Assembly: GCA_014297435.1 (NCBI GenBank)
Contig: JACOQA010000004.1
Span: forward strand, 30,043-94,042
Length of the DNA: 64,000 nucleotides
Direction of reading: 5' to 3'
Source of the DNA: Candidatus Nanohaloarchaea archaeon
Lineage (GTDB): Archaea > Nanohalarchaeota > Nanosalinia > Nanosalinales > Nanosalinaceae
Position 1 is the stretch's first letter. Each line of letters starts with the position of its first letter. Below the pieces are notes generated by a model. That model did not search any database. It saw only the letters and a list, made by a program, of their open reading frames with translations, and was not told the DNA's origin. Position numbers and translations under genes: made by a program. Below, in pieces: positions 22,663 through 39,276 of this stretch.

Positions 22663-23238
22663 ATGGAAATTCTGTTTCTGTATATGAACTTTGATATTAA
22701 GGGAGTTGAACTTGATGACAACCATTACGTCATCAAACAGGCACTATACAGGAATAAATACAGGGTCGAGGATTCTTCGGGTAAAACAGTTCTGAAAACC
22801 AAGCAGAAGCTGTTAAAGATGAAAGAGGAATTTCCTTTCACTAATTCGGATGAAGATACCGTTTTCAGTATCAAAGCCAAGAACCTGATGGATATAGCAG
22901 GCGACTATGCCCTGATAGATGAGGAAACCGGAGAAACGTTCGCAACGCTCGAAAAGAAATTCACGTTCTTCAAGCACGACTGGAAGGTCAAGAATTCAGA
23001 AGGTCAGGAGATAGCAAGGATTGAAAGTGCGAGCTTCGGACTTGAAGTGATGCGTTCTTTGGTTGGATTCTTGAACCTGATACCTCAGAAATATGATATC
23101 TCAAGAGGTGAGGATAAGATAGGAAGCCTAAACGGAAGATTTAAGCTGAGAGATGTCTACGATCTGAAGTTCGATGAGAAAGTGTCTGAGCCGTTGATAG
23201 CTGCGGCAGTTGCCGTCGATGCACTGGAGCACAACTAG
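22663..23238 (+). CDS. LURP-one-related / tubby C-terminal-like (DUF567) protein
   Basis: The repetitive beta-strand pattern HYVIKQALYRNKYRVEDSSGKTVLKTKQKLLKMKEEF...WKVKNSEGQEIARIE resembles the DUF567 family. An alternative start is MNFDIKG at 22681. Confidence 0.4.
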   Translation: MEILFLYMNFDIKGVELDDNHYVIKQALYRNKYRVEDSSGKTVLKTKQKLLKMKEEFPFTNSDEDTVFSIKAKNLMDIAGDYALIDEETGETFATLEKKFTFFKHDWKVKNSEGQEIARIESASFGLEVMRSLVGFLNLIPQKYDISRGEDKIGSLNGRFKLRDVYDLKFDEKVSEPLIAAAVAVDALEHN

Positions 23239-26200
23239 AGCTCTGACTCCAGATCCTCCAGTATTTTTTCCGTCTTCGTATACCTCCCAAGCTCCATAGC
23301 TTTCTGTGCGTGCTCGACCTTCATTATAGAGTCCTTTGGAAGCTCTCCACCTTCCTGGAGATCATTCTTTATCTCTTTTGAGATCTGTTCAAGCTTCAAC
23401 TTGAGCATCTTTCTTCGATGCATCCTGAAACCCAAGTATCCTGCGCATGCGAATAAAACAAGCAAAAGGGACGCCACCACCGGTAGAACTAGTTCTCTAG
23501 GTTGTTGTTCTGGTTCTGAGATTTCTTCCTCGGTATTGTTAAGCGTTGAATCGTCTTCAGCCGGAGTGCTTTCTATCTCTTTAACTCCTATAGCGAATTC
23601 AGTTGGTGCAGACATTACTGCACTGAAGTGCGTCTTGCCTGACCTTTCCGCCATTTTATTTGAACCTATGCTCTGCCAAGGGTCTCTCCGGACGTAAACA
23701 TCGATTTTAGAACCGTTCAGGAGTTCGTTACTGACCGAGAAATTAATAATAAAACGGCTGTTCTGAAGACTAGAGTCAAGACTGTAGCTGTTAAGAATAT
23801 TGAACTCCTCTGCTTCGAACATCTGTCTTGTGATAGTCAAGTTTATCCTTTCCTCTCCCGTCCTATCTACCACCAATGAGTTTATTCCCTCCAAGCCTTC
23901 TAGATCCAATTTCTTGTCTCGTGATATGTTGATGTTCCTGAAAACTGCTTGGTCATTTTCAACCGTTCTCTCTTCCTGGATCTGATTTTCGTCTTCTTGC
24001 TGGAAAGCTGTTAGGCTTCCTGAACCACCTCCAGACGATCCCCCTCCTGAACCACCGGAGTCATCGGAAGAGTCTGTAGAGCTTTCCGTCTCTTCAGCGA
24101 CCGCGTAGGCGGAGAAGCTGGAAACGTTGGTTTTTGCGACTGTTGAGTTCACTTCGCCCGAATCAATCTCTCTCCAGTCACTATCGCATTCATCCCTTTC
24201 AAAAGACCACTCGTCGCATTTCAGGAGTTTAGGAGAGTCGGTCTCAGCGTACTTGATGGTTAGTCCTGCCTCGGAGAAGTTTAGGTCGGTGTCGGCAGCA
24301 ATTACCTCCTTGAACTCAGTGTTTTTCCTCTCTAGATTGTCTGTTGAGACGTCCTCGGACCAGTTAACTGTAGTATTAGTATCTTTAGATATTTTGACTT
24401 CTCTGAGCTCTACATTCGAGTTATTGCCTACTTCTAGATCCCATACTCCCTCAGGGATCGATTCATTAAAGGCGGAGGTATTGGAGCTTTTCAGGGTGAA
24501 GTTCCTGCCCCGGATGCTATGTTGAACCGAGTTCTTTTTCTTCCCGTTCTTGAACCTTAAAGTGAGATTAACGGGTTTTCTTACTTCGAAAGTCTCATTC
24601 AGGGTGTTCCGCTTTGAATAAGTATCGTTGACTATAACTTTAGCCGTATAGTTTCCTCTCTGTGCTGTCTTGTTGAAAAGCTCTGTTTTTCTGAAACCGG
24701 AAGGATAAGGGTTTTCACCAGGAAAACCTAGTTTCCTTGTTTCTGTGGTTGAGTTCGGATACGTGATTTTGAGCTTTACCGTGTCTGGTGTCTCCTCTTT
24801 CATCTTGTAACTAAGATTAACTGTATCATTTATCTTGTAGACATCCCTTTTGTCCAAATTGGTTATTTTAGGGGCTAAGTTCTCGATCGTAAAGAATTCT
24901 GACTTGAAACGTGTGTTGTTAAATTTGTCCGTCCCGTTAACAGTTATGTTGGTTTTCCCGGGTTTTAGATCAAGCCTCGAGTAGTAGAAGCTCGAATTTT
25001 TCGATTTTAACCCTTTGGAAGTCCCGTTTATGTATAGATCTGCCGATTTAAGATCTTCATTTGAGCTGATGTTCGCCCAGATCTTCTCTGTCGTGTACGT
25101 AGTGTTTTCGATCGTTGAAAACTTCAGGGTTGGAGCTATGCTGTCTATCTCCAGGGAGCTGTTTGAAACCGCCAGGTTACCTACATCATCCTCAACAAAG
25201 TAGGTCAGATTGTAACTTGTCTCTTTGAATTTTACGGTGTTATTGAAGTGATAAGTGTTGTTTAATGCTAGTGTGTAGTTCTTCTTACCGTCTTCCTCGG
25301 ACCGTACCTCCGCTACCGCTTCTACATGTGTGCTGTCGTTGACCGAGATGTTTATTGTACCAAACGGTTCCCTGTACTTGCCTGCCGGCTCATTCACAGT
25401 TATGTTGGGCTTTGATGTGTCGACCGTCAGTCCAACAGATTCCTTCGCTGTGTTGCCGTTAGGGTCTGTGGCGTAAACCACAAGGTTGTACCTCCCGTCC
25501 TCAAGGTCCAGTGAGGTGTTTCCGGTAATCGTCTTGTTATCTGAACCATTGTTGTACTCTACTGTTGTTTCTTGATCTACACTATATCTAAGATCGAAGC
25601 TACCTGGATAGGAACGGTTTTGAGGACTGTACAAACTAAGCTTGGGAACTGTATCGACCCTGAAGCTTCGGTTCGTCGAATTTACGTTTCCATGTTCGTC
25701 TTCAACATATAGAATTATGTCGTGGTAGCCTTCCTCGAATTCAAACGTTTTGTTCCCTGAAAGGGTTTTGTTCTCGGATCCGTTGCTGTACAGAACCTGA
25801 TTAGCATCTTTCGAGGTGTAGTTGATGGATAATTCGTCTTTCGAGTACGTACGGTCTTTAGGTTGGTGTATACGAATATCTGGCGGAACGGTATCGACAG
25901 TAAAGTTTATAGAAGACGAGTTCCAGCCTCCTGAACTGTGCTTGGCGTAGAAAGTCGCGTTATGGAACCCCTCGCTTAAGCCATCTCTTTTATCGTAAAA
26001 GTGAGTCTCTGTATCATTCTGCATGGAGATATTTGAACCATAATCAACTGCGTAGAGAGTCTTCTCGATCTTCATATCGGTCGAAATGTTGAAGTAAGCT
26101 GAATTGTCCGTATAAGTTGTGTTGTTCGGAGATTCTATCGTTATATTCGGATATCTGAGCCTCTCTTTTTCGAGTAGCAACGTGTAGTCCTGCTGCCCTA

Positions 26201-28013
26201 TCTCCGGCACACTTGACCCCTTTACTTCTACGGTCAAATCTCCGCTTTCAGGTATATAGACCTTTTCCACGTTGTTCAGATCGTCTGACTTGTTTCTCCA
26301 AGGCTCCTTTGTAGCACGTGAAGAGTTGAGTGTCCAAGGATAGAACCTCTGACCCATCGAGTTCTTTACAATGAGATCAAGATTGTTCACTAAATTAAAA
26401 CCTGAGGAGGATTCGGCTGCGGGGTCGGACCACACAAGTGTTAAGTTAGCCGAGCCCTCTACGTCAAGGCTGTAACTATCTTTTTCGCCTGTTAAGACCG
26501 ATCCCCTCTTTATCAGGTCTCCTTTGTCTGCACGAAGGTAATCTATAGATCTTGAGACATTCAGTAATCCCCAGCCAGTTTTGTAGCTGGGTCCAGCCGA
26601 GTTGAGATCAGTTGCTGTATGTATCATCAATCCTTTTAGCTCCGAAGGTGTAGCGTTCCTGCCTTTCAACTCTCTGAACTCCTGCTGTAGAAGTAGTATA
26701 GCTCCTGATACAGCGGGTGATGACATCGAAGTTCCTTGTTTAGCGGCGTATGAGTTGCCAGGAACAGTGGAAGTAACAACCTCTCCTTTTGCCATGAGAT
26801 CGGGTTTTATCCTTCCGTCATCCGTAGGACCGTAAGATGAAAAGCTTGATCTCTTGCCTGAACCATCAAGCGAACCTACTACGATAGTGTTTTTTGCCGT
26901 AGCTCCAGGTCCCGTCAGTGTACTGCCATCGCCACTACATTCACCTAGATTTCCGGCTGAGAAGACCACTGGTATACGCTCCACGCTTGTTTCTCCGGCA
27001 ACTACATCATCATAACCAGCACTTCTTTGGGTATAAGCTCCAAGGATATCTTTTTCATCTGAACAACCTATATCGAATCCCCATGAGTTTTGTGATACTT
27101 CCGCATCGTAATTACTAACTGCATCCTTGTGCTCATTAACTAGTTCAGAGTAGTCAGCAGGCCATTCATAACTAGCAAGTGTTGCATTAGGCGCGATACC
27201 ACGATAAAGAGGATTCTTTTTTCCTGCGCCAAGCACGGTTCCGGCAACATGCGTGGCGTGATCACTAACCGAACAAGCAGACTCTGTGCAGCCTGAGTCC
27301 CCTCTAACAGTTTTTCCGGAGTAGTTTAGGTCAACGTGTTGTGCTGCCCAGCCACCATCCCATACTGCACCCCTTACACCTGATCCGTTGAGTTCAGTAT
27401 CCCAGCTTTTCAGCCTGTCTACCTCGATCATGTCCCGGGAACCATCATTCATAACTTTAAGAGGTGGTGGAGGCGGGCTTATCCACTTTACTGGTCCCTT
27501 AGCGAATTCTGACGGTTCTTTTTCTGTCCTAACCTTCCAGCTCTTTTTTCCTCTTGAAACAAGTTCGCCGGTTCTTTCAACAAATTCCTCTTTCTCTTCC
27601 TGACCTGTATTGTTGAAGAACTCAATTAGGAAAGTATTTTTCTCAGTATTAGAGCTCAAGTTTCTGTCTTTAATACTGGGAGAAATCCTGTCCTCTGGAT
27701 TAATATCCAGCACATTAACCTTTGGATTGGTCTCAAGCCTTTCCACAGCGGAGGACGTAAGATCAGCGTAGTAAGCGTTTTTTGGTATGTACCCCATCAG
27801 CTCAACGCCTTTAATTTTACCGTTTGAACGATTAGGAATATCATCGAACTCTAGGATGTGATATCCGGGTTCAGTTTGGGTTCCAAAAGCACTGATCGAA
27901 GGTTTTTCAGGTTCAACAGCACCTGATTTCAGGTTTACCTTTCCGGCTGAAGTCGACACCAGCAATAATATCAGAAGTATAAGTCCTAGAAGCCTCCATG
28001 AACCATCAGCCAT
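23235..28013 (-). CDS. Giant membrane-anchored subtilisin-like (S8) serine protease with tandem Ig-like domains
   Basis: Signal peptide. Catalytic triad motifs VWDGGW (Asp), DHATHVAGT (His) and GTSMSSPAVSGA (Ser). About five ~80-aa repeats (VDTVPP.../VDTVPK.../VDTSKP.../IDSIAP...). Ser/Gly linker SSDDSGGSGGGSSGGGSGS. TM segment LVLPVVASLLLVLFACAGYLGF followed by a ~65-aa tail. Confidence 0.85.
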   Translation of the reverse strand: MADGSWRLLGLILLILLLVSTSAGKVNLKSGAVEPEKPSISAFGTQTEPGYHILEFDDIPNRSNGKIKGVELMGYIPKNAYYADLTSSAVERLETNPKVNVLDINPEDRISPSIKDRNLSSNTEKNTFLIEFFNNTGQEEKEEFVERTGELVSRGKKSWKVRTEKEPSEFAKGPVKWISPPPPPLKVMNDGSRDMIEVDRLKSWDTELNGSGVRGAVWDGGWAAQHVDLNYSGKTVRGDSGCTESACSVSDHATHVAGTVLGAGKKNPLYRGIAPNATLASYEWPADYSELVNEHKDAVSNYDAEVSQNSWGFDIGCSDEKDILGAYTQRSAGYDDVVAGETSVERIPVVFSAGNLGECSGDGSTLTGPGATAKNTIVVGSLDGSGKRSSFSSYGPTDDGRIKPDLMAKGEVVTSTVPGNSYAAKQGTSMSSPAVSGAILLLQQEFRELKGRNATPSELKGLMIHTATDLNSAGPSYKTGWGLLNVSRSIDYLRADKGDLIKRGSVLTGEKDSYSLDVEGSANLTLVWSDPAAESSSGFNLVNNLDLIVKNSMGQRFYPWTLNSSRATKEPWRNKSDDLNNVEKVYIPESGDLTVEVKGSSVPEIGQQDYTLLLEKERLRYPNITIESPNNTTYTDNSAYFNISTDMKIEKTLYAVDYGSNISMQNDTETHFYDKRDGLSEGFHNATFYAKHSSGGWNSSSINFTVDTVPPDIRIHQPKDRTYSKDELSINYTSKDANQVLYSNGSENKTLSGNKTFEFEEGYHDIILYVEDEHGNVNSTNRSFRVDTVPKLSLYSPQNRSYPGSFDLRYSVDQETTVEYNNGSDNKTITGNTSLDLEDGRYNLVVYATDPNGNTAKESVGLTVDTSKPNITVNEPAGKYREPFGTINISVNDSTHVEAVAEVRSEEDGKKNYTLALNNTYHFNNTVKFKETSYNLTYFVEDDVGNLAVSNSSLEIDSIAPTLKFSTIENTTYTTEKIWANISSNEDLKSADLYINGTSKGLKSKNSSFYYSRLDLKPGKTNITVNGTDKFNNTRFKSEFFTIENLAPKITNLDKRDVYKINDTVNLSYKMKEETPDTVKLKITYPNSTTETRKLGFPGENPYPSGFRKTELFNKTAQRGNYTAKVIVNDTYSKRNTLNETFEVRKPVNLTLRFKNGKKKNSVQHSIRGRNFTLKSSNTSAFNESIPEGVWDLEVGNNSNVELREVKISKDTNTTVNWSEDVSTDNLERKNTEFKEVIAADTDLNFSEAGLTIKYAETDSPKLLKCDEWSFERDECDSDWREIDSGEVNSTVAKTNVSSFSAYAVAEETESSTDSSDDSGGSGGGSSGGGSGSLTAFQQEDENQIQEERTVENDQAVFRNINISRDKKLDLEGLEGINSLVVDRTGEERINLTITRQMFEAEEFNILNSYSLDSSLQNSRFIINFSVSNELLNGSKIDVYVRRDPWQSIGSNKMAERSGKTHFSAVMSAPTEFAIGVKEIESTPAEDDSTLNNTEEEISEPEQQPRELVLPVVASLLLVLFACAGYLGFRMHRRKMLKLKLEQISKEIKNDLQEGGELPKDSIMKVEHAQKAMELGRYTKTEKILEDLESEL

Positions 28014-28738: not shown

Positions 28739-30172
28739 TCATAGATCTGAGAGAAGTCCTTCAAAGAACTGAATAATTTTTTGAAGTAAACCGGTTTTTC
28801 TCTTGACTTCCTGTGTTCTGTTTGGAAGACTTAATTTCTGGATCTCTAAATTGCTGGATGATCCTTCAGGCTTTGCTGTATAAACAGGATAATCAAAGTC
28901 GTTAACTTTTTCAAGACATTTTTCGAATTTCTCCCTCTCATTGTAATTACAGGGCTTCATGTCCATCCTTTTACTGAAAAACTCCCACTTCTCCTCAGGG
29001 CTCTTAACCTTTGAATCGAAATCCATGCCCTCATAAAGTTCGTATATCGAACCGTTATCCCTAACATAATTTCTCATAACGAGTTCTGAGTAAGCGTATC
29101 CGAAATCTCTGTAATCAGCAAAATTATGGGGGTTCCAGTTCTTCATGAAGCTCATATTTTGGTCGTAGTACTGCCAAAGTGTTTCCCTTGAGCCTTTCGA
29201 CTCTAAGGAATAGATAACATTTTTCCCCTCTATCTCGGATCTATACTCCTCCTTCTCCCCGAATAGGGATCTGGGACCGATATCTATCCTTCCCGAATTG
29301 TAGAGTTTTTTCCTCATCAAAAACTCCGCATACTCGGAAGTTCCCTCCTCAAAGTAAGATGACTTTGTTCCATCCCATTTTAGCTTCCTGTCGTTCAAAC
29401 CGTGTACCACTTCATGCGACAGAACCGGTAGAGAACTTTCACCTAGATTTTTCCTAAGCCGGATGCTTCCTGAAACATATTCTCCTGCACTCCACCTGTT
29501 TACTGTTCTGTTGTACTTTTCACTGGGTAGAGTGGCAGCCGGAAATCTTTCGAAGCCTTGAACCTGTCCAATAGTTCCTACTGCTACAGTATAAGCTTCG
29601 TCCGCGTTTTCGGGCAGAGAGCCGAAGAAGTTGAAATAGTCGGTAACGTTCCCCTTCCCGAAGTTAAGCCTGATATTGGTAGGTCCTTCTCCTCTGAACT
29701 GCATTTTCGAGCCTTTGTACGATGATAAAAATCCGTAATCGATCCAACCCGAGATAAAGTCTACAACTTTTACAGTTCCAGTGGTTTTCTCTCCTTTGAA
29801 GCTTGGAAGTGAAAGTTCTCGTCTGTGCCAGTCCTCATGGATTTTTTCTGCCTCCTCATTAATCTTCATCCTAATTTGCAGGGTTTCGGAATTCCTAGGT
29901 CTTCCTTTGTTTGTGGATACAATCACCGAATCGTTGGATAAAGTATAACTATCTATTCTACCCAAAGAGTCGTTAATACCAATTATTTCAGCGTTTTCAG
30001 GTATTTTCCAGTCCAGCCTCCAGTTTGATACAGGACATTCTTCCTGACAGTCAAGTTTGACTGTTGTGTTCATCAAAATCTTCTCTCTGTCCGCTTCAAT
30101 ACTGTACTGGACTTCGGCAGCGGATGAAGCAATGAAAATTATGAGTAGAACAAGAACGATTTTTTTCCTCAT
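28739..30172 (-). CDS. Secreted zinc metalloprotease (gluzincin, HExxH+E)
   Basis: HEVVHGLND followed 18-19 residues later by FEEGTSEY. The start is taken at MRKKIVLVLLIIFIASSAA (signal peptide), not at the upstream ATG 30244. Confidence 0.6.
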   Translation of the reverse strand: MRKKIVLVLLIIFIASSAAEVQYSIEADREKILMNTTVKLDCQEECPVSNWRLDWKIPENAEIIGINDSLGRIDSYTLSNDSVIVSTNKGRPRNSETLQIRMKINEEAEKIHEDWHRRELSLPSFKGEKTTGTVKVVDFISGWIDYGFLSSYKGSKMQFRGEGPTNIRLNFGKGNVTDYFNFFGSLPENADEAYTVAVGTIGQVQGFERFPAATLPSEKYNRTVNRWSAGEYVSGSIRLRKNLGESSLPVLSHEVVHGLNDRKLKWDGTKSSYFEEGTSEYAEFLMRKKLYNSGRIDIGPRSLFGEKEEYRSEIEGKNVIYSLESKGSRETLWQYYDQNMSFMKNWNPHNFADYRDFGYAYSELVMRNYVRDNGSIYELYEGMDFDSKVKSPEEKWEFFSKRMDMKPCNYNEREKFEKCLEKVNDFDYPVYTAKPEGSSSNLEIQKLSLPNRTQEVKRKTGLLQKIIQFFEGLLSDL

Positions 30173-30195
30173 ACCCAAGGATTGGCTTGTAGCAA

Positions 30196-30202
30196 ATAAA
30201 AG
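30196..30202 (+). promoter_or_regulatory. TATA-like box ATAAAAG, 29 nt before the dcd ATG
   Basis: It sits in the 52-bp divergent intergenic region between 30172 (minus strand) and 30225 (plus strand). Confidence 0.35.
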
Positions 30203-30224
30203 AACATATGACCAAGAATGTAGT

Positions 30225-30812
30225 ATGGCTATACTCTCGGACAAGGAGATTAGAAGGATCGTAAGGGAGAAAAACGCGGTAGAAGCGAAGAAAGGTCCTG
30301 AAATAGATCTTGATCTTCAGGTTGGACCGGCCTCGATGGATTTCAGATTGGGATACGAATTCGGCGTGATGAACACACGAAAGTTAGATATTATAGATAC
30401 TAAGAACATGGAGAAGTACCAGAAATACATAGAGAAAGAGAAACATACTGCTGAGGACGGTATTGTTATACATCCTGGCGAGTTCATCCTTGGTTCAACA
30501 ATCGAGAAGATAAACCTGCCTGATAACATGGTTGCTAGAGTTGAAGGTAGATCCAGTTATGGAAGACTGGGAATAATCGTTCACTCGACGGCAGGATTTG
30601 TTGATCCAGGTTTTGAGGGGGATGTAACTCTGGAGATCCAGAACCTTGGAAACGCACCCGTGAGAATGTATCCTGAAGACCGTGTATGCCAGGTAGCGTT
30701 CGAGACCATGGAAGGTGAGGTAGAGAGTCCTTACGGAGAGAAGAAAGACGTTAAATATATGGGACAGACCGGCGCAACCGGATCTAAACTAGACAGGGAG
30801 AAGAGGGAATGA
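30225..30812 (+). CDS. dcd: dCTP deaminase (dUTPase-fold)
   Basis: MAILSDKEIRR..., VEGRSSYGRLGIIVHSTAGFVDPGFEGDVTLEIQN. The start is taken at the internal ATG 30225; the ORF-track extension from 30057 is antisense to the protease gene. Confidence 0.88.
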   Translation: MAILSDKEIRRIVREKNAVEAKKGPEIDLDLQVGPASMDFRLGYEFGVMNTRKLDIIDTKNMEKYQKYIEKEKHTAEDGIVIHPGEFILGSTIEKINLPDNMVARVEGRSSYGRLGIIVHSTAGFVDPGFEGDVTLEIQNLGNAPVRMYPEDRVCQVAFETMEGEVESPYGEKKDVKYMGQTGATGSKLDREKRE

Positions 30813-32400: not shown

Positions 32401-32925
32401 TTATCTTCTGCCCTGAAGGTTCTGATTAATTCTCTTGAGGAGCTCAATAATCTGTTCGTTCTGCGACTTGAGTTCTTCAAAATCCCCTCTCTGATTGGCT
32501 ACCGATTCATTCGAGGGCTGCAGTTCGTTTCTGCCTCTCTGACCCTGTCTTCCAAGATCCTGCTGATTTCCCTGACCTTGGTGTCTTTGCTGTCTCTGGT
32601 TCTGATTCTGGTTGTTTAAACCTGCGTTCTCCATTTTTCTCTTCGTCTGGCTACTAAGCTGAGGTGAGCTAGAGCCTGGATCAGGTCTTCCAGCTTGGGC
32701 GTTCGGATGCTGACTGTTCTGAGATCTCTGGTTCCGGGAAGGGTTCGGATTCTGGTTTCTCTGACTCTTCTGGTTGTTGTTCATATTGTTTCCAGGCGGG
32801 GGATTGTTCTGTCCCTGATTATTATTTCCTAGATCCGGTTCGTCCAGCGAGCTGTCTAGATCTGCCGAGTCAAATCTGGAATCCTCATCGTTAGAGCCCG
32901 GCTTTAAGTCATCGAATACGCCCAT
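32401..32925 (-). CDS. Q/N/R-rich low-complexity (prion-like composition) protein with a C-terminal short helix
   Basis: NNNQGQNNPPPGNNMNNNQKSQRNQNPNPSRNQRSQNSQ...NNQNQNQRQQRHQGQGNQQ. The start is taken at MGVFDD; the ORF-track start at 33048 would overlap the divergent gene. Confidence 0.5.
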   Translation of the reverse strand: MGVFDDLKPGSNDEDSRFDSADLDSSLDEPDLGNNNQGQNNPPPGNNMNNNQKSQRNQNPNPSRNQRSQNSQHPNAQAGRPDPGSSSPQLSSQTKRKMENAGLNNQNQNQRQQRHQGQGNQQDLGRQGQRGRNELQPSNESVANQRGDFEELKSQNEQIIELLKRINQNLQGRR

Positions 32926-32967
32926 AGAGCCTTGTTTAAAAACTTGGTTGATAAGGTTTCCGGCCTC

Positions 32968-32975
32968 TTTAAGTA
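32968..32975 (+). promoter_or_regulatory. TATA-like box TTTAAGTA, 30 nt before the GTG at 32998
   Basis: It supports the GTG at 32998 as a leaderless start for the 545-aa orphan. Confidence 0.3.
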
Positions 32976-32997
32976 CAAGTTTGACTAAAAACCAAGC

Positions 32998-34635
32998 GTG
33001 AGCCACGGTCACGACTACTCTGATACTGAACACTGCGAGTTCGGTCACACCTTCGTAGACGAAGACGGTCCCAAGTACCCCCGAGAGGTAGAAGGTGAAG
33101 AAATCTACAGCTTAAGCGACTTAGAGGAAGCTACTGATGACACATTTCTGAAACCTATAATGGGCGATCAGTGGAAAAAGATGAAAGTCAAAGGCTCACA
33201 GGGAGACGGCTTCGGAGCAATACTAGAATCAATCGACACATTTGACACTGATAAGGACTGGGAGGTTTCAATGGTAGCCGAAGAACTTTTTGTATCGCCT
33301 CAAAGCGAACTGCATGGAAGCTACATGCAGCAGAGACAGCAGGCAGAACAAAGAGTAAAGGAAACGATGAGAAGTCTTTCCGAACAGATAAAACAGAAAC
33401 ATATGCTAGAACACGATATTAGGAAGCTTAGATCAAGAGCTGAAGCGATGGAAGATCAGGATGACGCAGTTCTTAAAGGTGATTTCGTCGAGTTGGTCGA
33501 TTCTGCTGGAGGCGGACAAGGTGCTGCACCTGGCTCACTTGACTTCCTTAGAAACAACAATATCTACCCTACAATCGTCTCAGACTTCAATGAAATGGAT
33601 TCTGTAGAGGATCTGGAAGACGATGGAGTTTTAGGAGACCTTCCAGAGAATGAGAAAGCCATACTAAAGAAAAAATTCAAAATGTACGAGAAGTGGAAAG
33701 ATCTTTACGGCTCCGAGGTACAGAGAAAACTGAGAGAGCTTAAGGGCGAACTAAGAAGCACTGAAAGATCGATCAGTGAGACAAAAAACTGGTTAGAACC
33801 TTACATCAAGGACATGGTCACGATCAACGACATGACAGCCGGCGATACAGACCAAACGAAGGGAATGAACCCTCAGTACATTTCGAGAGGCTACTCGTCC
33901 ATGGAGCGCCACATGACCTATATTGCTTATCAGCCTGTGAAGCCTGAGAACGGCAACTTGGTAGAGGCAGAGGATGAGGATCATGCCACGCATTTCAAGG
34001 TAATCTACCTCCATGGCGTACTGGTAAATATAGGTAATCCTTCAGAGCCGAGACAGGTCGGGAGTGAGACCGGTGTAATGATGTGGCATCCGGCAATCGT
34101 CTGCAGACACGTCTTCGAGAGAATATTCGAGCCCAAGATTGAGGAGGCTGACAAAAAGGTCGAAACCTTAATGGAAGAGTACACCGGAGAGTTTTCACCT
34201 ACGGATACCGATCTTAAAGCTGCTAGAAACGCTGAAGACTTAGCTATAAGAGATCTCAGAAAGAAAGTAGGCGAAAAACTCAGAGAAAAGGGAGAACTCG
34301 ATGAAAACCAGCAAGTTCCTTTAGAGTTCTCAGCGACAATCAGGAGGATAGAAGACGGCTTCGAAAGCGTCGAAAGTATTGCTGAAGATGACAGCTACGG
34401 AGAACCTTATCTTGAAGCTTTAGAGGAAGTTCTCGGGACTACCTTCACAGGTAATGGTGATGGGGATGACTGGGAAGAACCAACTAAATTTCAGAAAAAG
34501 ATTAAGAGGTTTATTGGAAGTACAGATGATTTCGATATAAATTCTGACGCACAGTATGGAGAATATTCTTTCGAACTAATCACAGACTACTATATCGATT
34601 TGAAAAAAGGTCTAGGACTTTACACGATGAAATGA
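32998..34635 (+). CDS. Large orphan protein (545 aa) with His/Cys-containing N-terminus and central coiled-coil-like region
   Basis: Long acidic ORF. N-terminus is HGHDYSDTEHCEFGH. Heptad-like stretch QQRQQAEQRVKETMRSLSEQIKQKHMLEHDIRKLRSRAEAME. Its stop overlaps the next start (ATGA at 34632..34635). Confidence 0.6.
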   Translation: MSHGHDYSDTEHCEFGHTFVDEDGPKYPREVEGEEIYSLSDLEEATDDTFLKPIMGDQWKKMKVKGSQGDGFGAILESIDTFDTDKDWEVSMVAEELFVSPQSELHGSYMQQRQQAEQRVKETMRSLSEQIKQKHMLEHDIRKLRSRAEAMEDQDDAVLKGDFVELVDSAGGGQGAAPGSLDFLRNNNIYPTIVSDFNEMDSVEDLEDDGVLGDLPENEKAILKKKFKMYEKWKDLYGSEVQRKLRELKGELRSTERSISETKNWLEPYIKDMVTINDMTAGDTDQTKGMNPQYISRGYSSMERHMTYIAYQPVKPENGNLVEAEDEDHATHFKVIYLHGVLVNIGNPSEPRQVGSETGVMMWHPAIVCRHVFERIFEPKIEEADKKVETLMEEYTGEFSPTDTDLKAARNAEDLAIRDLRKKVGEKLREKGELDENQQVPLEFSATIRRIEDGFESVESIAEDDSYGEPYLEALEEVLGTTFTGNGDGDDWEEPTKFQKKIKRFIGSTDDFDINSDAQYGEYSFELITDYYIDLKKGLGLYTMK

Positions 34636-37334
34636 GCGAGAACTTTATACTTCAACGGTTGAGAGAGAAGTTCAGCCCTGATGAAGAAGCTGGCACAGAG
34701 GACTTAACTGCTCTGAATTACAAGGTAGGCAATACTTCCGGAATGGACGTTACACCTGAAATACCTTCAGAATTGGCTGAAAGAGTCGGTCAAATGGCGC
34801 AGAGAGCCGGAGGAGAGATGGAGATACAGATAGGCAACCCTTCAACTTTCTATATAGACAGGGAAGATCTCTACCACACAGTCGAAGGTCTCGGTATAGA
34901 TTTCTCAATCCACAGCGATCCAAACGTTGGCTATGCTTCGCCTTACCAAGTTGGCGAGGGAGGAGGTTTTGACGGAACCTTCAACTACTTCACGCAGTAC
35001 CTGCAAGCATTTGCTTCGTTCAAACTGGAGGCAGAAAGCAGATCAGATCTTAAAATAGGCAAAGAGGACGGTATAAAAATTGGAAGAATAAATCCTCACG
35101 TCTCAGTAAGCCCTCTACCTCAAACAGAACAGGAAAGAGCCCAAGGAGTAGCTCTTGACCCCTTAGGATATAGCCTATCAAAGCTTCAGGAGAATGAAAT
35201 GGAGAATAGAAGGGACGCAGGGAAGAATATTTGGGATAACGAGAATTTCCTTCGCAAATTCTACAGACTTTTCATAGTTGATGAGCTGGAAGACAACGAA
35301 TACCAACTCTTCGACAGATTCTACATTCCCTATTCAAACAAGATTGACAAAGTCTGGAGAGAAAAACAGAATGAAACACTAAATAGAATCTACGAGAATA
35401 GATCCGGAGAGTTTTCGGGAGATAAGCTGGGGGACAAGATTAAGATTATACGTGTCGCTGGTCAAGCTGACCCTGCGATCGCCAACACCTGGCTTGATAT
35501 ATTGGAAGAGGCAGAGGATTTTGGAGATTCTGTGGAATTCGAAATTCCAACACGTCGAGACAGACCAAATAAAGAAATCGAAGTAAACAGTTTAGTGAAA
35601 CTTGATGAATTGATTAAAAATCTCAACCCTAATTATGGCATCTCTGAACTCAGAAGACTTCCAGAAGTTTACTACTATCTTAAAAAAGAGAAGCTGGAAG
35701 GAATTTCGCGCGGTACAACCGAAAACGAATTTGATGAGGACAAAAAGGAAAGACTTTGGGAACTTCTTCAAGAGCCTTTAGAAAACGCAATTGATGACCT
35801 TTGGAATCTCAAACCCGATGATGTCCAAGAAGAGGTTAAAGAGGGAGATCCAAGGGTTTCACTTGTACCTATTAACGCAAAAATTCAAGCCGTTTCAAAC
35901 CATCTTGAGATACCTAATAGAAAGATACTGGAGAAGACTTTCTCTAACCACGCCCGCTATAAGGATAATAGTAAGACTGGTATACGGCAACATATTGAAA
36001 ACATGTATGCCGGCGAGAAAGGGTATTTTGAGAATGGAGATGATAGAACTCCTTCCAAGCGACACGAAAACTTTCTCCGAGCGGTAGCAGACCAGTTTGA
36101 ACAGCAGATGTGGCAGGAATCAAACGTTTTTTACAGGGTAGGACCGGCATGGGTTTCTTCATCGGAGGAAACAGTCGAAGGAGAAGAAGGCATATATCAT
36201 CAAGGTTGGAGGGCTCCTAAGTTTCTATGGAAATACTTGGTTGAGAGAAAACATGACAAAGCGCATGGAGGAGACTACGATCTTGATTTAACCGATCCAA
36301 GAAAAGATAATGGATACTTTGAAGCCCTAAACGACAGAGAGTTTCAGATGGATGTTGCTGCGGCTGTAGCAGGAACCTATATGTGGTCTATGTTTACGCA
36401 GGTTGAAGCTGACTTCGACATGGAGGGTACTTCTCACTTCAAAGGCAAGAGTAAGAAGGAGTCTTGGATTGACTGGATGAACAGGTTTGGTATTGGGATA
36501 AACATGGAGACTATGGCAGGTCAGCCTAGACAGTACTTCAAGCTCTGGCGTCCTGTACACGTGGTAGCCGCCTGTAGAGCAATCAACATAACTGCGAGAA
36601 GCAGATTGGAAGAGGGAGATGACTTGGGCGGTAAAAATCATATGGCTTCTGAACTAGACGACTGTCCTGTAAAGTTCACTATCGACATGGAGCACGTCTC
36701 AAGCTTCGGTGTAGATCCAATAAAGGAGATGGAGATCTGGAAAGACAGAGAGAAAGAACTACTAGAAAATCCTGTCGAAGTTGATGGCGAAGCAATTGAA
36801 GTTCCTGGAGATTCGAATCGACCTTTAGCCAAGATGTTGAGGATGTACCACTTGACAAAACCCGGTCACGAAACCAGTGGCGGTGTAGGACACACTCACG
36901 GTCCTTTCAGAAAAGGCGACAAGGAATTGTACACATGGCTTCATAAGATGGTTAAATGGGGTTTCACAAGAACGGGAGAGTCGGGCGAGAGAGCTTCAGT
37001 TATGTATGAGGTAGGAGGGGAGCAGGTCGGAACGGTATACCAGGCTAAGCTAGCTATGGATCTTATCGAACTAGGTGTTTCACCTGATGAGCTTGATCCT
37101 TCAGTGGTTGATCCAGGAAGCGAATATAAGAGCGAAAAAGAAGCTCTTATTGCCCGTTTCTTCGATATGGATCGTACAACTTATTCGAAGGAGTGGGCGA
37201 AGATTGAGCAACATGCATTCGATCCTCTAGATGGTCTGCTAGAAGCTGAAACGTTTGACGTTACTTTCTCGGGAAGCGCCGCTCTTGAAAATAACAATAG
37301 AATTAACGAGTTTCTCCCAGAAGAATATCAGTAA
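34632..37334 (+). CDS. Large orphan protein (900 aa) with an Endo IV / xylose isomerase-like TIM-barrel ligand series interrupted by a ~450-aa insertion
   Basis: The ordered motifs are IHSDP (His94), NPHVSV (His156), INMETMAGQ (Glu626), IDMEHV (Asp685/His688), MYHLTKPGHETSGGVGHTHGP and MYEVGG. Confidence 0.6.
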   Translation: MSENFILQRLREKFSPDEEAGTEDLTALNYKVGNTSGMDVTPEIPSELAERVGQMAQRAGGEMEIQIGNPSTFYIDREDLYHTVEGLGIDFSIHSDPNVGYASPYQVGEGGGFDGTFNYFTQYLQAFASFKLEAESRSDLKIGKEDGIKIGRINPHVSVSPLPQTEQERAQGVALDPLGYSLSKLQENEMENRRDAGKNIWDNENFLRKFYRLFIVDELEDNEYQLFDRFYIPYSNKIDKVWREKQNETLNRIYENRSGEFSGDKLGDKIKIIRVAGQADPAIANTWLDILEEAEDFGDSVEFEIPTRRDRPNKEIEVNSLVKLDELIKNLNPNYGISELRRLPEVYYYLKKEKLEGISRGTTENEFDEDKKERLWELLQEPLENAIDDLWNLKPDDVQEEVKEGDPRVSLVPINAKIQAVSNHLEIPNRKILEKTFSNHARYKDNSKTGIRQHIENMYAGEKGYFENGDDRTPSKRHENFLRAVADQFEQQMWQESNVFYRVGPAWVSSSEETVEGEEGIYHQGWRAPKFLWKYLVERKHDKAHGGDYDLDLTDPRKDNGYFEALNDREFQMDVAAAVAGTYMWSMFTQVEADFDMEGTSHFKGKSKKESWIDWMNRFGIGINMETMAGQPRQYFKLWRPVHVVAACRAINITARSRLEEGDDLGGKNHMASELDDCPVKFTIDMEHVSSFGVDPIKEMEIWKDREKELLENPVEVDGEAIEVPGDSNRPLAKMLRMYHLTKPGHETSGGVGHTHGPFRKGDKELYTWLHKMVKWGFTRTGESGERASVMYEVGGEQVGTVYQAKLAMDLIELGVSPDELDPSVVDPGSEYKSEKEALIARFFDMDRTTYSKEWAKIEQHAFDPLDGLLEAETFDVTFSGSAALENNNRINEFLPEEYQ

Positions 37335-37343
37335 CGTATTAAT

Positions 37344-37976
37344 TTAGAATATACTCTTAATCTTTTCTAGACCGTATCTCAAAGGCTCTAATCTCCTTTT
37401 AATCATCTCTTTATATCTCATTTTGCTCGAATCTCTTCCAATCTCATCAGTTTCGGGTCCGAGTGTTTCGTGTTTCTCGACATCAAGTGCTTTGCTTCCT
37501 ATCCAGTCGCTTCTCTTCTTGCAGTAGTCGCTTGCAACAGTTTGAACAGTACTATCTTTATGCGTATTTTCAGCTATTCTCTCGTAGTCGTCCCAGAAGG
37601 AATCTAACTCAATATTGTAGTTTTCAACTTCAAATCCGAGGTCTTCTAACCCATAACCTTTCTCTTCCTCCATTCTTTTAGAGATGTCTTCTTCTACCAC
37701 CAATGTTGGATCCCATTCTTCGTAGACCTCATCTATCGCACTTATGTGATCTTCGAAGAAGTTGTACCTGATTTGATCCTCTTCTTCGCTTGGGGAAGGA
37801 TGTAGTGCAACTACGTCAGGGGCTTCTTTGTCTTCGAGAAATTCCTCGTAAAGTTCCTCGTATTCTTCTTTATCAGTATCAGTTACATCTTTCTTAGGGT
37901 GTGGTGTTCCCAGTGCTTGACCTAGGTCGCTCCACGAAAACTCGAACTCTTTTTCTACCACAAAGTAACAATTCAA
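37344..37976 (-). CDS. Hypothetical acidic protein
   Basis: 210-aa D/E-rich ORF. The listed start is TTG at 37976; the GTG at 37961 is an alternative. Confidence 0.45.
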   Translation of the reverse strand: MNCYFVVEKEFEFSWSDLGQALGTPHPKKDVTDTDKEEYEELYEEFLEDKEAPDVVALHPSPSEEEDQIRYNFFEDHISAIDEVYEEWDPTLVVEEDISKRMEEEKGYGLEDLGFEVENYNIELDSFWDDYERIAENTHKDSTVQTVASDYCKKRSDWIGSKALDVEKHETLGPETDEIGRDSSKMRYKEMIKRRLEPLRYGLEKIKSIF

Positions 37977-38025: not shown

Positions 38026-39276
38026 ATGAGTTCCAAGGATAAAATGAAGAAGATGAGGGAGAAATCCCAGGAAAGAAGAATGCAAGCCGCAGAAGAGTTC
38101 TCCGAAAAACTGAAGGACAAACTCGGCGACAAAGTAAAAGTAGTAGCTGTTTGGGGCTCTGTAGCTAAAGGAGAGCACGGTCATGAATCTGATATTGACA
38201 CTCTCGTAATACTAGACGATACTAAACTAAAGAAAGATGTTCCTGACGACGCAAAAAAGAAAATCAGGAGAAAAGTAACACAAGCAGCCAAAGACACGGA
38301 CGATAGAATCACTATCCAGTATTTCCCTTTCCTCACCGAATTCTGGGACTCACTGAGAAAAGGAGAACCACTAGCAATCGAAGCAGTAAGAAACGGTCAA
38401 CCTGTCTACGACACAGGGATCTTCATGCCTGCCAAAAGACTTCTGCAGAGAGGTAAGATTAAAGCTACCAGAGAATCAGTCAAGAAAAGACTGAAGATGG
38501 CTGCAGCAGGATACAAGAAAGCAGAAAAGAACCTGAGAAGCTCCATCCCGCACAAGCTAGAACAGGTTATGGCAAACGCAGGACAGGCACCAATCATGCT
38601 TGTAGGAAAGAACCCGCCACCTAAAGAAAAAGTACCTGAAACACTTGGTGAAATGTTCGTAGAGAAAGACATGCTCGAAGAAGAGTATGTTGATATCGCC
38701 CAAGAACTCTACGACTTCGGCGACAAAGGGGAGAAGAACGCTAAGGAAGTGACCGGCGAAGAAGTCGAAGAACATCTAAACAAAGCTGATGACTTTGTAA
38801 GACGGATGCACAAGCTTGTCTCACAGCTAGGAGCACAGAAAAAGGTTAAAGGAATTGTAGACGACTACAAGAAGTTTCTGAAAGCTAACGTGGCAGCACT
38901 CAAAGCCAAAGACATAGAACCTCCAGAAGACCGAGATGATCTTCCAGAAGTAGTAGAAAATAACCTTGACGTCGATGAGGATCACATCGAGATGTTCGAC
39001 AAATGGGAGGACGTCGTCGAAAAGGTCAAGAACAAAGAAATGGATGAAGTTAACGAGAAAGAACTTTACGAACTCAAACAGACAACGAAAGAGTTTGTCT
39101 CCCAAGTAGGTAAGGACATCCAGAAGATGAAAGAGGAAAAGGCTGAAGAGATGACGCCAGAGATGGATACTTCGGATGTTGCGAAAGCAGCCGACACTGA
39201 TGAAATGATTCCTAACTTGGAGAAGAAGGCGGAGAAAGAGGTTGACGAGGATGAAGAGAACGAGGAGAAAAAATAA
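38026..39276 (+). CDS. Pol-beta superfamily nucleotidyltransferase domain protein with helical middle domain and K/E-rich tail
   Basis: The minimal NTase motif is VAVWGSVAKGEHGHESDIDTLVILDD (GS-x9-12-DxD). The C-terminal 120 aa are a charged, low-complexity tail. Confidence 0.65.
   Translation: MSSKDKMKKMREKSQERRMQAAEEFSEKLKDKLGDKVKVVAVWGSVAKGEHGHESDIDTLVILDDTKLKKDVPDDAKKKIRRKVTQAAKDTDDRITIQYFPFLTEFWDSLRKGEPLAIEAVRNGQPVYDTGIFMPAKRLLQRGKIKATRESVKKRLKMAAAGYKKAEKNLRSSIPHKLEQVMANAGQAPIMLVGKNPPPKEKVPETLGEMFVEKDMLEEEYVDIAQELYDFGDKGEKNAKEVTGEEVEEHLNKADDFVRRMHKLVSQLGAQKKVKGIVDDYKKFLKANVAALKAKDIEPPEDRDDLPEVVENNLDVDEDHIEMFDKWEDVVEKVKNKEMDEVNEKELYELKQTTKEFVSQVGKDIQKMKEEKAEEMTPEMDTSDVAKAADTDEMIPNLEKKAEKEVDEDEENEEKK

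Follow-up and report, generated by a model that had tools for sequence, protein, structure and literature searches.

Why should a long protein in which no catalytic motif can be recognized be encoded by a gene whose stop codon overlaps the start codon of a gene for a large TIM-barrel protein? The question is raised by a gene for a 545-amino-acid (545-aa) protein on contig JACOQA010000004.1 of a nanohaloarchaeon, of which a stretch of 64,000 nucleotides (positions 30,043 to 94,042 of the forward strand, hereafter the window) was analysed. An earlier note, made by inspection of the letters, had described the gene as an orphan coupled to its 900-aa neighbour and had suggested a two-component complex. 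The present evidence firmly supports a genuine and conserved gene, leaderless and begun by GTG, that is co-transcribed with the TIM-barrel gene, and the two genes are almost certainly coupled translationally. The reality of the gene, its start codon, the conserved promoter box, the operon coupling, the phyletic range, the co-variation of two cysteine positions and the fold class of the partner are established, and such gene-level facts, taken apart from function, are all but certain. The role of the protein can be proposed with much less assurance: it may be the scaffold subunit of an enzyme that acts in the end-processing or repair of nucleic acids, a reading that we hold tentatively and rate at somewhat less than an even chance.

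A conserved and coupled gene pair

The pair and its presumed promoter occupy the following positions.

32998..34635, plus strand: 545-aa gene with GTG start and TGA stop, encoding a coiled-coil protein of a family limited to Nanohaloarchaeota and Aenigmatarchaeota
34632..37334, plus strand: partner gene, whose 900-aa product is a TIM barrel of the xylose-isomerase fold and carries a helical insert of about 400 residues
32968..32975, plus strand: TATA-box-like TTTAAGTA, beginning 30 nt before the GTG, putative promoter of a leaderless 545-900 transcript

The extent of the open reading frame (ORF), its length, its GTG start and the overlap of its stop with the start of the 900-aa gene are all as the earlier note had given them; the TGA overlaps the ATG of the downstream ORF, the shared letters being ATGA, in AAATGAGCGA. 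A word-indexed search returned 183 homologues at E<=1e-3, which sets the gene well apart from a chance ORF, and its description as an orphan was not borne out, given these homologues and about 100 distant relatives in Aenigmatarchaeota. Nearly all of the 120 homologues listed are of full length (524-570 aa; 42-90% identity), and every named one belongs to Nanohaloarchaeota, as do all 43 loci found when each GTDB species was scanned through one genome. Searching 1.84 billion representative proteins with a profile yielded 140 clusters, in which the full-length matches are nanohaloarchaeal, and about 100 weaker matches (500-660 aa) align to profile positions ~88-330 only; the named ones among the latter are from Aenigmatarchaeota, except for one record labelled Woesearchaeota. 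When the profiles of the two phyla were aligned with hhalign, they matched over window residues 58-323 (probability 100, E 4.7e-41), and the C-terminal halves were unrelated in sequence. No relatives of the 545-aa protein were found on the viral contigs of IMG/VR that were scanned. One of the 43 loci (L030, JBLGBK010000006.1) lies in a public species-representative metagenome-assembled genome labelled Colwellia polaris and bears the 545-aa gene, the 900-aa gene and the nucleotidyltransferase gene described below; this contig looks like a case of bin contamination or mislabelling.

In 41 of the 41 loci with room for it, a homologue of the 900-aa gene directly follows the 545-aa gene (tblastn of the window genes against the 43 loci). 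The spacing between the first stop codon and the second start codon is -4 to +14 nt in 38 of these 41 loci and 66-128 nt in the remaining three. The same gene order and strand recur in five loci of Aenigmatarchaeota, where the 545-like gene is followed by a gene of 518-658 aa and by a 383-430-aa gene of the NTP_transf_2/Polbeta type. The tight linkage that had been claimed for the window, with orthologues always adjacent, thus holds in every locus with room, and it extends to a second phylum. Across the Nanohaloarchaeota loci, the 545-aa proteins are 40-90% identical (40-51% if the closest relative is set aside), and the 900-aa proteins 31-63%. In view of the conserved coupling it is reasonable to suppose that the two proteins may form a stoichiometric complex.

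The start of the pair is equally well defined. The octamer TTTAAGTA occurs once in the 64-kb window, and in 39 of 44 orthologous loci a box of the TTTAAGT type precedes the start codon by 29-36 nt, most often by 30 nt (21 loci); the start codon in these 39 boxed loci is GTG in 21, ATG in 17 and TTG in one. Archaeal promoters in which the TATA box is centred about 26-27 nt from the start codon give leaderless or nearly leaderless mRNAs, and the spacing seen here fits an mRNA that would begin at or beside the GTG. The leaderless reading, first suggested by the box in this one sequence, is hence backed by comparison, as the distance has been kept in 39 of 44 loci.

A start further downstream, at the internal methionine of MGDQWKK (residue 55, nt 33160), would have deprived the protein of its N-terminus and was considered as well. 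It was rejected, since conservation extends over the preceding 54 residues and the position of the promoter box is tied to the GTG: in an alignment of 30 sequences, M1, S2, F15, G16 and H17 are invariant or nearly so, and the conservation of M1-S2 and of F15-G16-H17 means that the 54 residues before the internal ATG are translated. The GTG start and the N-terminal extension are therefore real, and the 30 aligned homologues do not bear out the shorter form.

The protein had also been singled out as acidic. Acidic it is, with an isoelectric point (pI) of 4.6 and 21.5% Asp plus Glu, but this is nothing special to the gene: the neighbouring proteins have pI values of 4.4-5.3, so that the acidity is a signature of the halophile proteome and not a feature of this gene.

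Architecture of the two proteins

The structure of the 545-aa protein was modelled with AlphaFold2 (AF2) on the 30-sequence alignment. The model contains a small beta-alpha-beta unit (residues 60-99), a long helix (104-152), a helical apex (156-206) and a return helix (217-283); these are followed by a four-stranded sheet (301-369), a further helix (370-396) and a helical C-terminal third. The parts that matter for the argument are encoded as follows.

33307..33846, plus strand: antiparallel helical hairpin, residues 104-283 with apex 156-206, from the AF2 model and invariant columns; the most conserved part
33034..33048, plus strand: codons of C13-E-F-G-H17, N-terminal half of the proposed zinc site; motif C-x2-G-H conserved
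34102..34110, plus strand: codons of C369-R-H371, second half of the proposed zinc site
34204..34365, plus strand: XRE/MBF1-like helix-turn-helix (HTH) segment, residues ~403-456, in the Nanohaloarchaeota branch only
34618..34632, plus strand: C-terminal tail G-L-Y-T-M-K, directly before the stop/start overlap

The two stretches that the earlier note had quoted as heptad-like were located at residues 111-152 and 244-271, and both fall inside the two longest helices of the model (104-152 and 217-283), that is, in the two arms of the hairpin. Conserved motifs of the hairpin region are KHMLEHDIRKLRSR, DFVELVD, NIYPxIVxDF, NEKAILKKKYxMYEKWKDLYGSE and WLEPY. The region in common with Aenigmatarchaeota (residues 58-323) holds the hairpin and its apex and with them the strongest conservation. 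At the other end of the protein, the tail GLYTMK is kept while synonymous codon positions vary, which indicates that selection acts on the protein; it may be a docking tail.

The His/Cys-rich N-terminal peptide HGHDYSDTEHCEFGH, which corresponds to residues 3-17, had been proposed as a metal site. This was right in part: C13 and H17 are conserved, but H3, H5 and H12 are not, and the likely partners are C369 and H371, about 350 residues away in sequence. C13 and C369 are the only cysteines of the protein. Across 133 homologues, positions 13 and 369 are both Cys in 107, Pro and Asp in 23, and mixed in none. Within the Cys/Cys group, H17 and H371 are invariant; within the Pro/Asp group, 19 of 23 sequences have Phe for H371, and five of 23 have Tyr, Arg or Pro for H17. 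In a basal lineage of Nanohaloarchaeota the motif reads C-x2-G-C and not C-x2-G-H, with Cys instead of H17. The interchange of Cys with His and the co-variation of all four positions suggest one metal site in common, most likely for zinc, that would tie the N-terminus to the sheet, and C13, H17, C369 and H371 are its likely ligands.

The HTH-like segment in the C-terminal third, for which the family consensus is LKEAR..K.LSVRELREKI...VPLEFSSKIRRIEDG, resembles the XRE consensus, and its AF2 helices fit a five-helix pattern. Matches to HTH_31, HTH_19, HTH_3 and HTH_25 were obtained below threshold (E 0.037-2.4) in five of ten excised segments, the best PDB profile match was an XRE-type regulator (E 0.17, likewise sub-threshold), and TIGR00270 was matched sub-threshold, at E 0.1, by two of 30 members. 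Two members of the family (P0021 and P0071) carry the public names aMBF1 or MBF1-family, given by JGI and NCBI, and the others are called hypothetical proteins; the XRE-like segment explains these two names, which are probably over-annotations. Were they taken at face value, together with the recurrent weak matches at 403-456 and the Cys/His knuckle at the N-terminus, the protein would be a DNA-binding regulator or a derivative of aMBF1, with a functional zinc knuckle and HTH and with the hairpin used for dimerization. This is distinctly unlikely. None of the HTH and aMBF1 matches comes close to threshold (best E 0.037-0.17). The zinc ribbon C-x2-C...C-x2-C at the N-terminus of aMBF1 is not present in the 545-aa protein, where C-x3-H (C13, H17) is all that is found. 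Furthermore, the HTH-like part is missing from the homologues in Aenigmatarchaeota, so that the conserved core is the hairpin, and a regulator is not normally coupled translationally to one enzyme across two phyla.

Other searches with the 545-aa protein led to no recognized family. Pfam, NCBIfam and PDB sequence searches gave no match; phmmer and profile searches of the PDB returned nothing, the PADLOC and PHROGs scans returned nothing above noise, and no informative domain fusion came to light when 20 members of the family that are longer or more distant were scanned against Pfam. A Foldseek search with the AF2 model gave coiled-coil noise only (best E 0.12 in the PDB and 0.006 in BFVD, TM-scores <0.2). 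No paper was found on the 545-aa family or on its linkage to the two other genes, and its sequences are public as hypothetical proteins. The protein thus has no characterized relative in sequence or predicted fold; its newness consists in the lack of a match and not in a demonstrated mechanism. We propose that it is non-enzymatic, considering that it belongs to no catalytic family, matches no fold and is dominated by the hairpin in the predicted model.

The AF2 model of the 900-aa protein (pLDDT 77.5, pTM 0.79) contains eight strands (30-35, 62-67, 90-95, 150-156, 623-626, 680-685, 736-741 and 788-793) and, between predicted strands 4 and 5 in our own numbering, a largely helical insert of about 400 residues. 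All meaningful Foldseek matches of the model have the xylose-isomerase fold; the best include sugar-phosphate isomerases and epimerases, and 3p6l, 3vnl, 8yeb and the apurinic/apyrimidinic (AP) endonuclease of African swine fever virus, 6ki3, were matched with probabilities of 0.75-0.96 and E 0.2-0.8 (0.91-0.96 and 0.2-0.4 for the first three). Orthologues from Aenigmatarchaeota exceed the gathering score of PF01261 (31.1 bits) with 42.6 and 37.9 bits (E 7.8e-11 and 2e-9), and BLASTP aligned the window protein and its motifs with an Aenigmatarchaeota orthologue at E 2e-6. The strands, the Foldseek matches and the PF01261 match of the linked orthologues confirm that the 900-aa gene is TIM-barrel-like, as had been supposed, and its assignment to the xylose-isomerase fold class is established.

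Nine residues are invariant among 26 sequences of the 900-aa family: H94, H156, E626, D685, H688, H740, H754, H756 and E793. They stand at the ends of AF2 strands, with H688, H754 and H756 just after them; the strands that carry E626, D685, H740 and E793 end in these residues, so that the barrel presents Glu, Asp, His and Glu at its strand ends. We take the metal ligands of Escherichia coli endonuclease IV (Nfo) to be H69, H109, E145, D179, H182, H216, D229, H231 and E261, and these residue identities agree with the E. coli nfo sequence, which was fetched for comparison. In a manual alignment of the motifs, the two sets follow the same order, with eight identical residues and one replacement of Asp by His (at Nfo D229), and the local motifs correspond as IDMEH to IDTCH, MYHLT to GMHLN and METMAG to ENTAG (900-aa family and Nfo, respectively). 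The motif alignment therefore leads to the hypothesis that the 900-aa protein may have a chemistry like that of endonuclease IV.

The nucleotidyltransferase gene and the wider neighbourhood

A third conserved gene lies downstream of the pair, and further genes and signals lie around it.

38026..39276, plus strand: 416-aa nucleotidyltransferase of the MNT/KNTase type, third conserved gene, with a TATA-like box of its own here
37344..37976, minus strand: acidic 210-aa ORF between the TIM-barrel and nucleotidyltransferase genes, recognizable only in L001 and L042
32073..32393, plus strand: 106-aa small membrane protein upstream of the module, kept in about half of the Nanohaloarchaeota loci
32401..32925, minus strand: QN-rich gene with corrected start ATG 32925; N-terminus MGVFDDLK, low-complexity Q/N-rich part and C-terminal coiled coil
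32947..32961, plus strand: element GTTGATAAGGTTTCC, putative TATA/BRE region of the minus-strand QN-rich gene, recurring upstream in loci that bear this gene
L044 1823-3474, L046 6130-7549 and L048 4898-6505, minus strand: divergent genes of Aenigmatarchaeota, two paralogues without Pfam match beside a P/Q-rich gene

The nucleotidyltransferase, which matches NTP_transf_2 in Pfam and the N-terminal region of KNTase in the PDB, follows the 545-900 pair in nearly all Nanohaloarchaeota loci, and its identity across them is 71-96%, far above that of its neighbours. At the same position in Aenigmatarchaeota, its counterpart is 34% identical (E 2e-59), and the motif G-S-x(9-12)-S-D-I-D is present and conserved in both phyla. 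About 20 of 36 loci have no gene between the TIM-barrel and nucleotidyltransferase genes, with gaps of 71-109 nt, and in the other loci a variable ORF of the opposite strand intervenes; two extra genes lie there in one of the five loci of Aenigmatarchaeota. In SG9, a different acidic ORF, of 244 aa, fills the slot that the 210-aa ORF takes in the window, and the slot as a whole holds unrelated, fast-evolving acidic ORFs or nothing.

Judged by its description, this nucleotidyltransferase probably belongs to the family cls.004259 (NEQ050), a DPANN-specific fusion of MNT to HEPN that Makarova, Wolf and Koonin (2019, PMC6393860) described as unusually conserved, placed in a housekeeping context and named a top-priority unknown; only 47 DPANN-specific clusters were counted in that study. 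The same family has been described as toxin-antitoxin-like (Makarova et al., PMC6393860), and the window protein matches the PADLOC candidate PDC-S09 (E 4e-11) and an MntA antitoxin model, which would be in keeping with a toxin-antitoxin or antiviral defence module built around an MNT(-HEPN) nucleotidyltransferase. Such a module is very improbable for several reasons. The 545-aa and 900-aa proteins have no significant match in PADLOC or PHROG (best E 0.03 and 0.0085), no relatives were found on the IMG/VR contigs scanned, and the HEPN-type R-x4-H is not conserved, RSSIPH of the window protein being aligned with KLYLIA in the Aenigmatarchaeota orthologue. The module was found once per contig at a syntenic site of the core genome, in every locus examined (43 of Nanohaloarchaeota and five of Aenigmatarchaeota) and in two phyla, whereas defence systems are distributed in just the contrary, patchy way.

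The surroundings are in accord with an ordinary chromosome and with the housekeeping role that we favour for the module. The window encodes methionyl-tRNA synthetase, another class I aminoacyl-tRNA synthetase, subunits A, B and I of the A-type ATPase, VWA proteins, an S8 subtilase, dCTP deaminase, TatD and an NYN protein. The last three lie near the module and are syntenic in about half of the Nanohaloarchaeota loci; the neighbours in Aenigmatarchaeota include ABCE1, ribosomal proteins and TFIIB, with NUDIX and DNA ligase in some loci. The dCTP deaminase ORF (30057-30812, plus strand) is listed with a TTG start that overlaps a 501-aa ORF of the minus strand, and an internal ATG at about nt 30220-30230 (MAILSDKEIRR), just before the Pfam DCD domain, is the likelier start. 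The subtilase (ORF 23235-28013, minus strand) is a surface protein of 1592 aa with a Peptidase_S8 domain, a Big_13 Ig-like domain, many N-x-S/T sequons and a C-terminal hydrophobic anchor, a surface protease of the kind that could matter for contact with a host. No tRNA genes or Rfam families were found at threshold in the whole window, and a scan of the window for bacterial promoters and terminators gave background counts, the models being bacterial and not applicable to archaea.

Directly upstream of the module, a divergent QN-rich gene is found in about half of the Nanohaloarchaeota loci. In the window, it and the 545-aa gene are 72 nt apart, with two conserved boxes between them, at 32947-32961 and 32968-32975. 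The first, GTTGATAAGGTTTCC, is probably the TATA box and TFB-recognition element (BRE) of the QN-rich gene; it is non-coding, for in other loci the conserved start M(G/S)V(F/L/I)DD is closely preceded by stop codons. An ORF of the minus strand at 32401..33048, which begins with a GTG at 33048 and overlaps the 5' end of the 545-aa gene, was rejected on the same grounds, stop codons standing immediately upstream of MGVFDD in other loci, and ATG 32925 is the true start.

Comparable genes occur in Aenigmatarchaeota. In three of the five loci (L044, L046 and L048), the 545-like gene is directly preceded on its own strand by a gene for a hydrophobic, membrane-like protein of 114-120 aa, and L047 and L049 have only ORFs of 44-57 aa at this position; similarity of the small membrane protein across the phyla is weak (E 0.01). 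A divergent upstream trio consists of two paralogues of about 160-180 aa and a P/Q-rich protein, which has an N-terminal MG-hydrophobic motif and a C-terminal coiled coil and hence the architecture of the QN-rich protein of the window. A BLAST comparison of the QN-rich and P/Q-rich proteins was not significant (E 0.56), and no counterparts of the two paralogues were found in the Nanohaloarchaeota loci.

These neighbours allow a quite different view of the hairpin. The 545-aa protein could be a cytoskeletal or membrane-remodelling scaffold, with a hairpin of the PspA/ESCRT-III kind that would form polymers at the membrane, joined by the small membrane protein and by the divergently encoded protein (an amphipathic helix at the N-terminus, a disordered region and a coiled coil), and with the TIM barrel as its cargo or modifier. 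The long helical hairpin is indeed the core of the protein, PspA_IM30 was matched sub-threshold by nine of 30 members (best E 0.005) and DLP_helical by five of 30, and a small membrane protein and a low-complexity coiled-coil protein that begins with MG-x-x-D-x-x-K adjoin the gene in both phyla. However, such Pfam matches are usual for coiled coils, the 545-aa protein has no membrane segment, and no PspA, Vipp1, ESCRT-III or dynamin is among the 50 best Foldseek PDB matches listed (best E 0.12). Moreover, the obligatory coupling to a metalloenzyme and the conserved nucleotidyltransferase would be left unexplained, and we regard this scaffold as unlikely.

Coiled coils in these organisms have been discussed in yet another connection. 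Conserved coiled-coil proteins (CCPs), proposed to serve in attachment to the host cell, occur in cluster-2 DPANN, including Nanohaloarchaeota and Aenigmarchaeota, and are defined by their position beside genes of the type IV pilus, CpaF and TadC (Hamm et al., bioRxiv 10.1101/2023.02.24.529834). We give very little probability to a place of the 545-aa protein among them: no such pilus genes were seen in the gene tables of the five Aenigmatarchaeota loci (7-8 kb on the flanks), near SG9 or in those ORFs of the window that were scanned, the 545-aa sequence shows, by eye, no signal peptide or membrane anchor, and the family was detected in two phyla, a narrower range than that reported for CCPs.

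A tentative role and its relation to known systems

The reading that needs the fewest assumptions is that the 545-aa protein is a subunit of the coupled enzyme. We infer a physical complex of the two proteins, zinc binding, nuclease chemistry and a nucleic-acid substrate, which would combine in the following way. A leaderless mRNA would start at or beside the GTG, and the 545-aa gene and the overlapping 900-aa gene would be translated together from it. The first product would fold into an N-terminal beta-alpha-beta unit and a beta-sheet from which an antiparallel helical hairpin of about 180 residues projects; its N-terminus would probably be pinned to the sheet by the zinc site of C13, H17, C369 and H371, and its helical C-terminal part may include an XRE/MBF1-like HTH. 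It would act as a non-catalytic scaffold or substrate-recruiting subunit in a complex with the 900-aa enzyme, in which the invariant H-H-E-D-H-H-H-H-E would mirror the trinuclear metal site of endonuclease IV. Together with the MNT-type nucleotidyltransferase, the pair would serve a process of nucleic-acid end-processing or repair that is specific to Nanohaloarchaeota and Aenigmatarchaeota. The role in nucleic-acid metabolism is suggested by the endonuclease-IV-like ligands, by the adjacent nucleotidyltransferase and by the syntenic nucleic-acid enzymes (dCTP deaminase, TatD and NYN in the one phylum, NUDIX and DNA ligase in some loci of the other).

Several observations count against this proposal or fail to support it. 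In a mirror-tree comparison, the 545-aa and 900-aa families correlate with r = 0.46-0.52, no better than unrelated neighbours. The AF2 model of the 545-aa protein is of moderate confidence (pLDDT 70, pTM 0.49), with a poorly predicted N-terminus; the cysteine co-variation may trace to one event, as a crude tree built by the unweighted pair group method with arithmetic mean (UPGMA) implies one to four losses; and the HTH-like segment is both sub-threshold and absent from the Aenigmatarchaeota branch. As to the partner, neither the window protein nor four other Nanohaloarchaeota members matched Pfam, even when the insert was deleted, and hhalign found no match between the 900-aa family profile and the single E. 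coli Nfo sequence, so that the endonuclease-IV reading rests on manually aligned motifs and weak Foldseek E-values. In addition, sugar isomerases and epimerases, too, typically have an E-D-H-E core of four ligands. Finally, the promoter-like box of the nucleotidyltransferase gene and the ORF of the opposite strand that precedes it in about half of the loci make its membership of the unit weaker than that of the 545-900 pair.

A bolder version of the proposal would be an as yet undescribed complex of all three proteins that replaces or supplements a canonical pathway of repair or end-processing in Nanohaloarchaeota and Aenigmatarchaeota and in which the 545-aa protein forms a zinc-stapled, substrate-recruiting arm of a new fold; we consider this doubtful. 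The weight that remains after the enzyme-subunit reading and its alternatives belongs to something that has not been considered here.

Nevertheless, the module deserves attention. DPANN archaea have tiny genomes and few conserved genes that are specific to their lineages, and a gene that is probably of the cls.004259 family is now linked to two further unknown genes, which are at least as tightly linked to each other. The three-gene core and further conserved neighbours are common to two phyla and offer features that can be tested: the four-residue Cys/His site, the nine candidate catalytic residues, the conserved leaderless promoter and the conserved C-terminal tail. If a repair or processing machine is involved, it would fill a gap in the nucleic-acid maintenance of reduced genomes, and if the role is structural, a new archaeal scaffold would have been found.

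Each component of the module resembles a known system and departs from it. The 545-aa protein has a long antiparallel hairpin in common with PspA, Vipp1, ESCRT-III and SMC-type coiled coils, as well as sub-threshold matches to PspA_IM30 and to an archaeal SMC-related model, but it has no fold match to them and no ATPase head, and its hairpin emerges from a beta-sheet domain with a Cys/His site. It is like aMBF1 and the XRE family in that residues ~403-456 follow the XRE consensus and helix pattern and in that two records are so named, and unlike them in its size (545 aa versus about 160 aa), in the lack of a C4 ribbon, in scores that all stay below threshold and in the absence of the segment from Aenigmatarchaeota. 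The third gene shares with cls.004259 and NEQ050 the MNT/KNTase type, the helical C-terminal part, the housekeeping context and the high conservation in DPANN; a link to a coiled-coil or TIM-barrel gene is not reported for that family in PMC6393860, and the R-x4-H is not conserved in Aenigmatarchaeota. The 900-aa partner, in turn, shares a predicted eight-stranded barrel with the PF01261 superfamily, and its nine invariant His, Asp and Glu residues follow the order of the ligands of endonuclease IV; it differs from Nfo in its length (900 aa versus 285 aa), in the helical insert in mid-barrel, in the His that replaces D229 and in the obligatory partner gene upstream.

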